The position numbers and the translations under genes are program-made. A stretch of 56,401 nucleotides of DNA from an uncultured archaeon (GTDB lineage: Archaea; Asgardarchaeota; Thorarchaeia; Thorarchaeales; Thorarchaeaceae), in NCBI GenBank assembly GCA_964458565.1, contig CAYWJO010000019.1, positions 1 to 56,401 on the forward strand. Direction: 5' to 3'. A model generated the notes under the pieces. It saw nothing but the letters and a program-made list of their open reading frames with translations, had not been told where the DNA came from and made no database searches. This document shows positions 44,300 through 55,882 of the stretch, piece after piece; the stretch's first letter is position 1, and each line of letters opens with the position of its first letter.

Positions 44300-44573
44300 A
44301 TTTAGTTCGCATCCATTGGATAAAAATCGTCAGTAAACAAGTTTTAGAAGGATTCCGCATCTGATTATTTTCTTGAAATCATGGTAGTTCCTGAAAGAAT
44401 CAACTTTTTCCATTGCTTCTTTAGTATCTATACGATACAGATATTCAATCTCTTTAGTATCCGTCAACCCTGATACATCACACGAATTTCGTTAAAAACA
44501 AGTTTTTCGTGTTTGCAGACCTAGAGTTATATATCTAGACATGTTCTGTAACATCATTAAGGGGAATCAGACC

Positions 44574-45479
44574 ATGTCAGAGATTATCATAGGATATACA
44601 ACAGTACATGGTGACATAGACACCAAAATTTTCCCGACTGATACAACCGAAATAAAACTAATCCTCCGTGATATGAAATCCATTGATCTCTCACCAGTAA
44701 AGAATTGTAAACATCTGCAGAATTTTATACTAAATCAAAGTCAAGCAGAAGAGATTGATCTTTCACCTTTATCAGAGTGTAGTGAACTCCAGAGAGTTTA
44801 CATGGAGAACAATCAGCTACGCAGCTTGGACATGACTCCACTTGGTATGTGTTCCAACTTGCAGTCTGTATATATCGAAGAACGCAATCTTGAATCTGTA
44901 GATTTGGCACCTCTATCAAATTGCTCTAAGCTATGCAATATAGCACTTCAGCGGATTCAGGCTACAGAACTTGACCTAGCCCCCTTAAGTCACTGTAAGG
45001 ATTTGGAGAATATCTCATTTATGGCAGAATACCTGACCAGCATTGACCTTAGTCCTCTAAAGGAATGTCCCAAACTGAGAACGGTTTCGGTCTGTGGAGA
45101 GAAGATACCGTCAATTGACCTATCATTTGCACATCATACCCCCAGACTAGAGGAACTTGCGATTGTCTCTACTCATATACCAGAAATCGATCTTACGCCT
45201 TTGAGTAGTTGTGAGAATCTACACAAACTCTGGATTCAAGATTCTGGAATACATGAGATCAATTTAGACCCTCTGCAGCAGTGTGTCAATCTCATTGGAG
45301 TGTGGCTCAATGGCAATTCATTGAAGGAGGTTGATGTGTCACCTCTCTTTATGTGTACTAACTTAGGAATAATTGAGCTTGATGAGGATACCATACCTAT
45401 TGCACAGAATCATTTGGGAGATATGAGTGTACTCTCAGCAGGAATTAGTGAGATTGTGGATAGAATAGAGTGGTTCTAA
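44574..45479 (+). CDS. Leucine-rich repeat protein
   Basis: About 11 repeats of 22 aa, consensus L..IDL.PL..C..L..(L/I); start chosen at ATG 44574. Confidence 0.9.
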   Translation: MSEIIIGYTTVHGDIDTKIFPTDTTEIKLILRDMKSIDLSPVKNCKHLQNFILNQSQAEEIDLSPLSECSELQRVYMENNQLRSLDMTPLGMCSNLQSVYIEERNLESVDLAPLSNCSKLCNIALQRIQATELDLAPLSHCKDLENISFMAEYLTSIDLSPLKECPKLRTVSVCGEKIPSIDLSFAHHTPRLEELAIVSTHIPEIDLTPLSSCENLHKLWIQDSGIHEINLDPLQQCVNLIGVWLNGNSLKEVDVSPLFMCTNLGIIELDEDTIPIAQNHLGDMSVLSAGISEIVDRIEWF

Positions 45480-45491
45480 GACCCATATCCT

Positions 45492-45977
45492 CTAACCATA
45501 AGACACTGTACCATAGAAGATGCTCGGTAGCTTTCTCTTGGAAATCTTCCTGATTACATCCCGAACATCCTTTGGAGCTTTTAAGACGCCATACACCTTG
45601 ATACTATCAAGTGTCTTCTCAATTACCTCAGCATCGATGTCCTCATCTAGGATAAGCATCCCAACAGAATGAATACGGAGTCTCTTTCCTTCACCAAGTG
45701 CACCTTCGAGTGTAGACCTATTTAATTTGAACACACCAATCATTGAGATTTGCTTTATCCCTGATTCTTCATCTTCATCCGCATCTTGATCACTCGTTAT
45801 CTGTTCAATCCGAGTTCTGATATAATCATCATGAGAATCAAGAGCCTTCCTGATTGCAGAACGTATGAATTCAGCACGGCTGGGGTAAGTCCCTGATTCA
45901 ATGAGAATATCGATTCTTCCTAACTCCACAGGAGGGAGATTTATCGTTAGTTTTTCCATTGGAACATCTTCAAACAT
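45492..45977 (-). CDS. CopG/ribbon-helix-helix transcriptional regulator
   Basis: EKLTINLPPVELGRIDILIESGTYPSRAEFIRSAIR. Confidence 0.88.
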   Translation of the reverse strand: MFEDVPMEKLTINLPPVELGRIDILIESGTYPSRAEFIRSAIRKALDSHDDYIRTRIEQITSDQDADEDEESGIKQISMIGVFKLNRSTLEGALGEGKRLRIHSVGMLILDEDIDAEVIEKTLDSIKVYGVLKAPKDVRDVIRKISKRKLPSIFYGTVSYG

Positions 45978-46172: not shown

Positions 46173-46278
46173 GGGCCGGTAGTTCAGCCTGGTAGAATGC
46201 CTCCTTGGCACTTGTGTCGCACTTCGCGTGCATCCAAAGTGGAGGAGGTCACGAGTTCAAATCTCGTCCGGTCCACCA
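46173..46278 (+). tRNA. tRNA-Ala(GGC) with a 29-nt canonical 37/38 intron (46211-46239); CCA encoded
   Basis: GGGCCGG/CCGGTCC stem with G3:U70; CCTCC-TTGGCA^T-GGAGG; ACGAG-TTCAAAT-CTCGT; BHB helix TTGG/CCAA. Confidence 0.95.
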
Positions 46279-46288
46279 TACTCCTTTT

Positions 46289-46669
46289 TCACCTATCTGA
46301 TTCACTTAATGATACGATTTTCTCTTCACTTTGGGTTCTCATTTTGTATCCTACATAGAGCCCATACCATAAGAATGCAGTAACCGTCCAAAATAGACTC
46401 AAGATTAACAACAGGATGATGAAATTCGGTATGCCTATAGCAACAAGCGGCCAGTAGTATGTAACGAGCACAGTAATCAGTGTGACAATGGGTGTAAAGC
46501 ATACACCTACGTGGAAAGTCCCTGCCATTCTACATTCGAATGAACAAAATTGTTTTTCCCGATTGGAAATGCTAGACTGGAATGATCTTCCACACCACCT
46601 ACATCGAGATCGGTCATCACCATTCTTACCGTTTTTCTGAGCTTGATTAACTAATATTACCTCCCACAA
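46289..46669 (-). CDS. Small membrane protein with CxxC...FCSxxC zinc finger and two TMs (cassette 1)
   Basis: CRWCGRSF...FCSFECR followed by two hydrophobic helices. Confidence 0.7.
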   Translation of the reverse strand: MWEVILVNQAQKNGKNGDDRSRCRWCGRSFQSSISNREKQFCSFECRMAGTFHVGVCFTPIVTLITVLVTYYWPLVAIGIPNFIILLLILSLFWTVTAFLWYGLYVGYKMRTQSEEKIVSLSESDR

Positions 46670-46752
46670 GCTTTCACTAGCATATCAGAATCTAGATAGA
46701 AAAGGATTCTTCCCTTAAAGGAATACTTCTACACGCTCACTTAGCATTCCTA

Positions 46753-46794
46753 GCATGGAGGAGGTCGCGAGTTCGAATCACGCCCGGTCCACCA
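46753..46794 (+). repeat. tRNA-Ala 3'-half copy (att-like site 1)
   Basis: GCATGGAGGAGGTCGCGAGTTCGAATCACGCCCGGTCCACCA matches the intron-less tRNA-Ala 3' half with 4 substitutions. Confidence 0.92.
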
Positions 46795-46804
46795 TCACTT
46801 CTTC

Positions 46805-48208
46805 TCATACAGTCTTTTTCCTTAGGATTAGTACCATTACAAGAATACTAATGGCACCACCAGTAAAAATGATGATGATAAAAGTCGCATCGAATAATGG
46901 TAAATTAGACGTTGTAGTGATGGTGGTTGTTATTGGACTCGAGAGATTAGATGTTGTAGTGATGGTGGTTGTTATTGGACTTGAGGAATTTGTGGATATT
47001 ATAGGACTAGGATCATGATAAACTGCTAAATCGAATGAGGTATTGTACCTGTCAGTTCCGAGGGTGATAATATAACCAGGAATGGATGCATCGATCCAAA
47101 CGTCTGGATTACCCACAGATGTTTTCCACCAGTTAATCGGACCTAGACTTTGATTCCAAACTTTATTTCCATCTGAATCATAATTCAGTAGATGAACCTC
47201 ATTTCCATATGAGGACTCTTGCAGGAGGATGTAGAGTCCACCATTACATCCTGTAGCCACAGATGCACAAAACCAGTGTTTGTCCCCCAGATAGGAATCA
47301 GTAGCACTCCAGATATGATCACCAAGATTGTTATAGAAGTCAATATTGAATTCATTGTTCCAATCAGATATGCTGAGGGTATAGAAAGAACCATCAGGTC
47401 TAATGGTCATATAGCTTTTTGATCCAATCGACCACATCTGATTGCCATCAGAGTCCCATTTTATGATGAAATCTTCACTTAAAGTATAGATATATCCCAT
47501 TTCATCAACTTGTACATCAGAACCCCACTCGAAATCACCTGTTCCACTCCATATTTTACTCCATAAGACTAATCCAGATGGAGATATCTTCGTTAGCATT
47601 CCTCTTGATTCTTCAATGCAAGAACCACATGTGGTAGATTCCCCACCAATTATGTATATAGATCCTGAACTATCCGCTGCGATAATGTGGCCATATTCAT
47701 TATAATCTAAAGGTCCCCATATGACATTACCATCATAATCCCATTTCTGTAGACCATTCCTGCTATTTGTATAGATGAATACTCCATCAGTTGCCATTGA
47801 CCGAGCATCATCATTGATAATTGTTCGATTCCATTGTTGATTCAATTCAAGATCCCATTTTACAAGATGAAATGTTTCTTCTGTCACAACTGTTGAAGAT
47901 GATGTATCAAAATGTGCGCAGAATCCAAGTGTGAATATCGCATTATTTGAAGTTACCACCATTCCTTGCCACAAAAAGACTGATGAGTCATATCCATCCA
48001 GATGATACCTCCATGTAGTAGAATGTGCTGGTAGGAATATCTCCGATGTGTTTGTTAGTGTTGTAGTCAGATTTCGACGATTCGCAGTATTATCGGGTAT
48101 ATTGAGACCATATTTTGTAAGACGAAGATTGTTTCCATCGATCATATATATCCCTGAAAATAGAATAATCAGAATGATGAAACAGATCCCGAAATTCTTA
48201 ATATTCAT
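46805..48208 (-). CDS. Membrane-anchored beta-propeller-like surface protein (cassette 2)
   Basis: True start ATG 48208 (SD GGAG); N-terminal signal/TM; repeated K(W/Y)D..GN..W blades; Thr-rich stalk; C-terminal TM plus RKK. Confidence 0.8.
   Translation of the reverse strand: MNIKNFGICFIILIILFSGIYMIDGNNLRLTKYGLNIPDNTANRRNLTTTLTNTSEIFLPAHSTTWRYHLDGYDSSVFLWQGMVVTSNNAIFTLGFCAHFDTSSSTVVTEETFHLVKWDLELNQQWNRTIINDDARSMATDGVFIYTNSRNGLQKWDYDGNVIWGPLDYNEYGHIIAADSSGSIYIIGGESTTCGSCIEESRGMLTKISPSGLVLWSKIWSGTGDFEWGSDVQVDEMGYIYTLSEDFIIKWDSDGNQMWSIGSKSYMTIRPDGSFYTLSISDWNNEFNIDFYNNLGDHIWSATDSYLGDKHWFCASVATGCNGGLYILLQESSYGNEVHLLNYDSDGNKVWNQSLGPINWWKTSVGNPDVWIDASIPGYIITLGTDRYNTSFDLAVYHDPSPIISTNSSSPITTTITTTSNLSSPITTTITTTSNLPLFDATFIIIIFTGGAISILVMVLILRKKTV
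46904..46985. repeat. 42-bp tandem duplication encoding SSPITTTITTTSNL twice
   Basis: ATTAGA(C/T)GTTGTAGTGATGGTGGTTGTTATTGGACT(C/T)GAG at 46904 and 46946. Confidence 0.9.
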
Positions 48209-48294
48209 GAGAACTCCAAACCAACAAGAAAAGGTAGTATGCTTTCTAAAATAAGTTCTTGTGCTTGTCGGGACATATAAATCAACAGAACAGC

Positions 48295-48323
48295 CGCGTG
48301 TTCGAATCTCGCCCGGTCCACCA
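48295..48323 (+). repeat. tRNA-Ala 3'-end copy (att-like site 2)
   Basis: CGCGTGTTCGAATCTCGCCCGGTCCACCA: T arm, 3' acceptor strand and ACCA. Confidence 0.9.
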
Positions 48324-48329
48324 TTTATT

Positions 48330-48989
48330 CTAAGGATAACATAGATTCCAACCGGGTTGATACGTATGAACAAGTTCCATTATCTCAGTATATGAATCAT
48401 CTGAAAAGAAAGGCCTAGGACAGGTTGCTTCTCCATCGTATACTGCGAAGTGGATGTGTGCACCACCACCCACCTGCAGAAACTCACCGAGTGTATCCCC
48501 TTTAGCGACCCAATCACCCACTTCAATATCTAACATTGCAATTTGACGATCCACTACAGATGAATTTGTAGTCCACGGTTCAAATACGTATCCGATTTGT
48601 ATAGTCTCATTGAATCTGATTGAAACATGGATCATGTAAATGTTATCTGCTGGACCGGTGTCAGTCCATGATATCTCTTCCACAAGACCCGGTGCAGCAG
48701 CTTGTACCATAGACCTGTTCTTGAAAGCAAAATCAAGTCCATTATGTACAGCTCCCCAAGGGCAAGAGGTGCTTTCACTATATCCTCCATTCCAATTAAG
48801 GATGTCAGATCGGTTTGTGTAAATTACACCCATATAATTCAGATTGGTAGAATCGTAACGTCCTTCATTATCAAAGAGACCATCCTCTCCATCTGGATTA
48901 TTGGAGTCACCTCCATACTGCATATACAGTATGACAGCTGCAACAATTATAATCATGAAAATGAGTATGGCGCTGGTTTTTTTCTGCAT
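48330..48989 (-). CDS. M23-family metallopeptidase-like exported protein (cassette 3)
   Basis: N-terminal signal/TM; HNGLDF (HxxxD), VQAAAPG.V, V.VGD.V.KGD.LG, HIHF (HxH). Confidence 0.8.
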   Translation of the reverse strand: MQKKTSAILIFMIIIVAAVILYMQYGGDSNNPDGEDGLFDNEGRYDSTNLNYMGVIYTNRSDILNWNGGYSESTSCPWGAVHNGLDFAFKNRSMVQAAAPGLVEEISWTDTGPADNIYMIHVSIRFNETIQIGYVFEPWTTNSSVVDRQIAMLDIEVGDWVAKGDTLGEFLQVGGGAHIHFAVYDGEATCPRPFFSDDSYTEIMELVHTYQPGWNLCYP

Positions 48990-55786: not shown

Positions 55787-55882
55787 GCCGAGGTAGATCA
55801 GCCAGGGAGATCGCGCGGCTGAAGTTCCATAATGGATGCAGAAACCGCGTTGTCGGGTGTTCAAATCACCCCCTCGGCACCA
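55787..55882 (+). tRNA. tRNA-Phe(GAA) with a 19-nt 37/38 intron (55825-55843); CCA encoded
   Basis: GCCGAGG/CCTCGGC; CGCGG-CTGAAG^A-CCGCG; GGGTG-TTCAAAT-CACCC; upstream TTTATAAA box. Confidence 0.95.

Follow-up and report, generated by a model that had tools for sequence, protein, structure and literature searches.

A conservative exchange classically leaves a pair of reciprocal chimeric att sites as its footprint. At tRNA genes, crossovers are assigned to three recognised sublocations, one of which is the T stem-loop, according to PMC4383910 and PMC8371274, through which the classes of Williams 2002 are cited; in phage Ms6, the crossover lies in the T loop of a tRNA-Ala gene (PMC1762012). 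PMC8371274 also refers to the proposal that an intron-bearing attP can act as a vector for introns (Sugahara 2012, cited therein). Crossover in the T loop of tRNA genes is known already. What is undescribed, as far as our searches reach, is the stacking of integrase-free, mostly one-gene cassettes behind Asgard tRNA genes; a word search of two papers on Asgard mobile elements (PMC8813620, PMC11529989) found no such cassette arrays described.

The window considered here is the whole stretch of DNA that was analysed, 56,401 nucleotides (contig CAYWJO010000019.1 of assembly GCA_964458565.1) from an uncultured archaeon of the Thorarchaeaceae, and it contains an array of tRNA-Ala 3' ends and small single-gene units with the following features.

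46173-46278, plus strand: intact tRNA-Ala(GGC) with encoded CCA, the head of the array (Rfam RF00005, 54.5 bits)
46211-46239, plus strand: intron of this tRNA, 29 nt, at site 37/38
46279-46752: cassette X1, with a single gene on the minus strand
46289-46669, minus strand: gene of cassette X1, a small membrane/zinc-finger-like ORF of 126 aa (from the ORF list)
46753-46794, plus strand: fragment 1, attL-like, the 3'-terminal 42 nt (anticodon GCA to CCA) of a tRNA-Ala(GGC) without an intron
46771-46779, plus strand: putative crossover interval of fragment 1 (G53, T loop, C61), limited by informative positions 52 and 62
46795-48295: cassette X2, with a single gene on the minus strand
46805-48208, minus strand: gene of cassette X2, a predicted secreted SBBP-like beta-propeller protein of 467 aa (ORF)
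48296-48323, plus strand: fragment 2, attR-like, consisting of T arm, acceptor 3' strand and CCA alone
48300-48308, plus strand: putative crossover interval of fragment 2, limited by informative positions 52 and 62
48324-48989, minus strand: trailer TTTATTCTAAGGATAACATAG and M23 peptidase gene (48330-48989; Pfam PF01551)

The intron-bearing tRNA at 46173-46278 was overlooked by ARAGORN and detected by Rfam; a G3:U70 pair and the GGC anticodon can be read in it, and its T arm, ACGAG-TTCAAAT-CTCGT, is free of mismatches. Both 3'-end fragments are co-oriented with this tRNA, lie 516 and 2045 bp beyond it, and are spaced 1529 bp apart from start to start. The first-pass annotation of this DNA had described a locus of two fragments and had overlooked the tRNA; the fragments stand, and because an intact tRNA-Ala also sits 516 bp upstream of fragment 1, the locus is a three-site array. 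A 24-nt core occurs in 3 copies in the window versus 0 in 100 shuffles, the third copy being the 3' end of the intact tRNA. In fragment 2 the likeness to a tRNA begins at about position 48, and a search allowing up to 8 mismatches found no more fragments 3' of it.

The comparison set consisted of 86 species-level genomes of the same family, and in two of these, G020 and G053, there are loci orthologous to the window, with the upstream genes and the tRNA promoter in common. Between the conserved upstream gene and this promoter, the window has genes for an LRR protein and an RHH_8 regulator (44541-45977) that are missing at both orthologous loci, an insertion without a tRNA 5' fragment. Elsewhere in the window, at 55787-55882, ARAGORN reports a 'tRNA-???' of 96 nt whose anticodon has four bases; this is probably a misread intron-bearing tRNA; in the syntenic region of G020 there is a matching tRNA 3' end (L050, near 7270).

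The T arms of the two fragments carry reciprocal mismatches. Fragment 1 consists of GCGAG (46767-71), TTCGAAT (46772-78) and CACGC (46779-83), followed by CCGGTCC-A-CCA ending at 46794, and A52 (46770) is opposed to A62 (46780). Fragment 2 consists of GCGTG (48296-300), TTCGAAT (48301-07) and CTCGC (48308-12), followed by CCGGTCC-A-CCA ending at 48323, with T52 (48299) opposed to T62 (48309). Over the 28 nt that the fragments have in common, positions 52 and 62 are the only differences, and a swap of halves yields two fully paired T stems. The T-arm sequences and the mismatches at pair 52:62 had been reported in the first-pass annotation exactly as we read them from the DNA, and the arms that it had derived by swapping, GCGAG/CTCGC and GCGTG/CACGC, are both obtained and both are real tRNA-Ala arms. 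Such a pattern might also arise as an assembly artefact, through a chimeric join or mis-polishing at short repeats, as this is a short-read MAG and tRNA fragments are repeats. The window sequence is present in salt-marsh metagenomes, where fragment 1 is spanned by run X2 record 5 (46692-48030), run X3 record 11 and run X4 record 19, and fragment 2 by run X2 record 8, run X3 record 14 (47821-48723) and run X4 record 21 (46953-48620). These contigs, from 3 other salt-marsh samples, have unique flanks on both sides and 0 differences at either fragment. Because both mismatches are thus reproduced by independent contigs of 3 other samples, they are not assembly errors, the outcome that had been named at the start as fatal to a recombinational reading, and an artefact can be given next to no credence.

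If the fragments are products of an exchange, the parental alleles might be found among relatives. The arms with a TTCGAAT loop in the 86 family genomes include 14 copies of the perfect form GCGAG..CTCGC and 4 of the perfect form GCGTG..CACGC, and both mixed forms occur in this genome alone; in a wider census of 104 sites in the 86 genomes, A.A and T.T arms were again seen only here, adjacent to one another. The majority of these perfect arms belong to complete tRNA-Ala genes, which have a GGC, CGC or UGC anticodon and in some cases an intron; A52:U62 and U52:A62 are accordingly natural covarying alleles. The rebuilt attB (left part of fragment 1 and right part of fragment 2, 42 nt) matches the tRNA-Ala(GGC) of G053 and G070 and a fragment in G072 at 42/42 positions; G053 belongs to another, related genus, and its tRNA-Ala(GGC) is the syntenic orthologue of the window tRNA. 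The rebuilt attP core (left part of fragment 2 and right part of fragment 1, 28 nt) matches the tRNA-Ala(GGC) of G049, G058, G063 and G079 at 28/28 positions. These sequence comparisons support the view that fragments 1 and 2 are reciprocal products of the attL/attR type, formed by exchange between positions 52 and 62. To judge from the informative positions in the sequence, the exchange would have taken place within the 9 bp G53-TTCGAAT-C61.

The alternative of two independent point mutations in decaying tRNA fragments, hitting the same base pair by coincidence, draws on the fact that displaced fragments are free of selection and that many of them are degenerate in related arrays. A rough chance estimate, obtained as 5/378 for two differences falling in one T-stem pair times about 1/3 for their being reciprocally complementary, is about 0.004. 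Moreover, both changes would be A/T transversions while the other 26 positions stayed intact, the T52:A62 pair is found in a real tRNA-Ala allele with no other difference over the 28 nt, and a second reciprocal pair is found in G046, as described below. Coincident mutation is consequently regarded as very improbable. The attL/attR reading of the first-pass annotation, which had already judged independent mutations to be less economical, is favoured by the parental alleles, by the attB and attP matches, by the uniqueness of the two mixed arms among the 104 sites and by the G046 case; its statement that the T loop with its stem is a recognised crossover site agrees with PMC4383910 and PMC8371274.

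A separate observation concerns the orthologous tRNA-Ala(GGC) of G020 (L051:2543-2573; G020:C57, minus strand), in which a 31-nt insert separates the 5' T stem GCGAG from the T loop, lying exactly at their border. The same insert is found in contigs of runs X2 and X3; either an intron at 53/54 or a recombination scar at the cassette crossover point might account for it.

The second reciprocal pair lies in a genome of genus g8 (G046:C172), where GTGAG-TTCAAAT-CTCGC and GCGAG-TTCGAAT-CTCAC bound a 635-bp unit with one ORF of 186 aa on the strand opposite to the tRNA. The mismatches fall at pair 50:64, and a half-swap restores GTGAG/CTCAC, the arm of the resident tRNA, together with GCGAG/CTCGC. 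The arrangement is that of the window, with long tRNA sequence retained on the left of the proximal site and, at the distal one, a likeness to tRNA that starts only at the T arm.

Many of the family's genomes have arrays of tRNA-Ala 3' fragments behind tRNA-Ala genes, with fragments 0.4-10 kb apart (median about 1 kb); the number of sites reaches 7 in G046 and 12 in G018. The cassettes are of 0.4-5 kb and mostly hold one gene, and larger units of 3-10 kb also occur. In a set of 72 fragments the likeness to tRNA begins in the anticodon region in 30, in the T arm in 22 and in the T loop in 20; an exact known 5' T stem without upstream tRNA sequence was found in 11 of the 72, versus about 0.2 expected by chance. 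One family of cassettes (family A, about 570 bp, with one membrane ORF and fragments at both ends) occurs in 6 genomes, and the homology between its copies begins in the T loop. A unit composed of the right half of a fragment, the trailer and the M23 gene is present in this genome (G000), in G018 and in G020, being kept at 78-80% in the latter two at different positions of the array; between G000 and G018 its homology begins in the T loop. The right half of fragment 2, with the trailer and the M23 gene, would from this distribution be an older unit. A homologue of the 126-aa ORF of cassette X1 is found in G020, at the orthologous locus, in a fragment-bounded cassette, and the order of the family A, M23 and 126-aa ORF cassettes varies between genomes. 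Several contigs of runs X2-X5 match the intron-bearing tRNA of the window and diverge at or after its CCA (46276-46279), which suggests that relatives carry other cassettes at this point.

Pooling all arrays to test the accretion model gave no discrimination, with perfect stems in 16/34 cases under the model, in 16/34 as observed and in 14/40 in the reverse control; as the model did not beat the control, many sites would derive from crossovers of the anticodon class or at other points, or have decayed. Elsewhere in this genome (G000:C2:10703-11207), another tRNA has a 3' fragment 477 bp downstream with its own perfect T arm (CCCGG/CCGGG versus CCAGG/CCTGG), as would be predicted had the crossover lain elsewhere than in the T loop.

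These arrays bear on whether the exchange was guided by a recombinase or driven by homology, either through Campbell-type insertion of a circle or through two crossovers by which linear DNA of a relative with the GCGTG/CACGC allele took the place of a segment, with the crossover or crossovers falling by chance within the 9-bp identity between the mismatches. The arrays lack a recombinase and PF00589 is lacking in most genomes of the family, the order of the cassettes varies among genomes, and an even spread over 28 bp would put about one third of crossovers between 52 and 62, all of which is compatible with homologous exchange. The homology amounts, however, to just 24-29 bp, and the fragment boundaries are unevenly spread, clustering in two places, T arm/T loop and anticodon, which are the symmetric sublocations of tyrosine integrases; moreover, the homology between cassettes starts at the T loop in independent genomes. 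An exchange driven by homology is therefore considered improbable, and site-specific exchange in the T loop is the reading followed here.

The content of cassette X2 gives some indication of what was inserted. The propeller protein has a Thr-rich linker and a C-terminal anchor, and the linker is encoded by a 42-bp tandem repeat (46904-46987); one contig of run X3 is one 42-bp copy shorter (skipping 46910-46953), and this difference in copy number is the sole variation inside the cassette among the sample contigs. The relatives of the propeller protein are distant repeat proteins alone, which carry PF06739 SBBP or PQQ_2 domains; no close relative was found in the 86 family genomes, and a word-index search of a 5.8-billion-protein index returned only the protein itself. 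Other cargo of the arrays is likewise accessory, and includes NosD-like beta-helix proteins, serine hydrolases, an AFOR with ferredoxin and an FMN reductase. Flanked by what look like the two products of one exchange, the propeller gene is likely to have come in as a small mobile cassette, though no recombinase is encoded nearby. One could instead imagine that the T loop received a larger element with an integrase gene, from which deletions left the propeller gene alone; the usual island with displaced tRNA fragments does bear an integrase (PMC4383910), and units of 3-10 kb are found in related arrays. Cassette X2, however, is 92% coding, with 10 nt between the CCA and the stop codon and 87 nt between the start codon and fragment 2, which leaves no room for gene remnants, and these non-coding ends hold no pseudogene remnants. 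In the related arrays the median spacing of about 1 kb goes with intact single ORFs, one-gene cassettes have identical boundaries in six genomes, and no array element, even the one of 10 kb, has PF00589. Reduction of a larger element thus seems unlikely, and the entry of cassette X2 as a small unit is preferred.

No tyrosine recombinase (PF00589) was found by Pfam in the window or among the ORFs of its array, and none on the array contigs examined, including that of the 10-kb element. The genome has one PF00589 gene (contig C53, 366 aa), only weakly XerA-like (38.9 bits versus a cut-off of 220), with relatives of roughly 390 aa in G018 and G046, and neither a tRNA nor flanking repeats were seen in the contexts of the PF00589 genes of G000, G018 and G046. 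SSV-type integrases (PF16795) and serine recombinases (PF00239) had no match in this genome, and an integrase-bearing element at tRNA-Ala was seen in none of the genomes examined. Any PF00589 match at all is found in 29 of the 86 family genomes (8 of the 23 good ones), and because 57 of 86 (15 of 23 high-quality genomes) are without one, much of the lineage seems either to have no XerA-type resolvase or to have one that is not recognisable. MAGs often lose plasmids and viruses, and for that reason a trans-acting integrase may still be the source of the activity.

Contigs of runs X2-X5 yielded neither an empty site nor a circle junction of cassette X2, contigs being unable to reveal rare forms. 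A junction at 46771/48301 in these contigs, with letters in between, belongs to the tRNA of a G020-like relative and is no empty site. A degenerate pattern for attL, attR, attB and attP with their flanks had no match in JGI metagenome contigs, a collection that probably does not include the source samples, and the tRNA-Ala 3' core, sought in viral contigs, brought up only unrelated phage tRNA-Lys/Ser arrays.

We consider it probable that the locus is an accretion array behind tRNA-Ala(GGC), in which a circular cassette X2 used a GCGTG/CACGC site to enter a GCGAG/CTCGC tRNA by exchange in the T loop, with the help of a recombinase acting in trans. Cassette X2 would have entered as a small circular DNA, which may have differed from the exact 1529-bp one-gene circle proposed in the first-pass annotation. 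Its attP would be the T arm/acceptor end, 28-29 nt, of a tRNA-Ala allele with GCGTG/CACGC (U52:A62), and its target attB the 3' end of a tRNA-Ala(GGC) with GCGAG/CTCGC, with strand exchange inside G53-TTCGAAT-C61. The recombinase, by analogy, would be the tyrosine integrase of another element. In the preferred order of events, cassette X2 would first have integrated into an intact, intronless tRNA, leaving that tRNA with the A.A mismatch. Cassette X1 would have integrated later by a crossover in the anticodon loop, displacing the chimeric 3' part as fragment 1 and supplying the present intron-bearing, perfectly paired 3' half of the tRNA. This two-step history is the simplest, because fragment 1 extends as far as the anticodon and has no intron.

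The reciprocal chimeras map the exchange to 9 bp without experiment, and they mark a 1.5-kb one-gene unit without a recombinase as something that behaved as an insert. The rebuilt attB and attP provide a precise substrate pair for finding the missing recombinase, and the locus illustrates in nature how, through integration, a tRNA gene can exchange its 3' half and gain an intron. With the arrays of the whole family taken into account, it points to a flow of accessory genes (surface proteins, peptidases, redox enzymes) at the level of cassettes in Asgard archaea, whose gene influx bears on ideas about the origin of eukaryotes. More tentatively, and with less than even confidence, one may envisage an integron-like form of gene capture in Thorarchaeota, in which small, integrase-free and mostly one-gene cassettes with a tRNA T-arm/3'-end site are integrated, removed and shuffled at tRNA genes by a trans-acting recombinase, possibly not of the PF00589 type; if such a system exists, the reciprocal chimeras here and in G046 would be its molecular footprint.

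Among described systems, the tandem genomic islands that tyrosine integrases form at tRNA genes (Islander type) resemble the locus in having displaced 3' fragments behind an intact tRNA and in its orientation, here the tRNA at 46173-46278 and two fragments. They resemble it also in that the block of identity runs from the crossover to the 3' end of the tRNA, in the T stem-loop crossover, and in the tRNA-Ala target, as for Ms6; the crossover here, to judge from informative positions 52 and 62 that bracket the T loop, falls in a recognised tRNA sublocation. In contrast, the integrase that defines such islands (PF00589, not of Xer or integron type) is found in no unit here, and the units, of 0.4-5 kb and mostly with one gene, form arrays that reach 6-12 sites in an Asgard host.

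The CIMEs (cis-mobilisable elements) known from accretion and mobilisation of streptococcal ICEs are alike in being att-bounded, devoid of recombination genes of their own, and arranged in tandem at one site with an integrase presumed to act in trans; here as well, the att-bounded units are without recombination and transfer genes. They differ in that CIMEs adjoin a related ICE that supplies the integrase, whereas no master element is visible here, and in that the att site here is a tRNA T arm.

Integron cassettes share with these units a small size, mostly single ORFs, swappability, accessory or surface cargo, variable order and a short recombination site that can form a hairpin; cassettes X1 and X2 have one ORF each, and cassette order differs between relatives. 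Unlike integrons, the locus has neither IntI nor attI, and upstream of the tRNA stand genes for an LRR protein and an RHH regulator; its cassettes are delimited by 3' fragments of tRNA-Ala and not by attC, Rfam having found tRNA alone; and gene orientation is mixed, the cassettes appearing to carry their own promoters.

The archaeal SSV, pTN3 and pT26-2 integrases likewise direct integration into the 3' part of tRNA genes, yet there are no split (suicidal) integrase halves at the borders here and no PF16795 in the genome. Lastly, the transfer of introns via attP (Sugahara 2012, as cited by PMC8371274) has a likely counterpart at the head of the array, where the resident intron-bearing 3' half of the tRNA appears to be cassette-borne.
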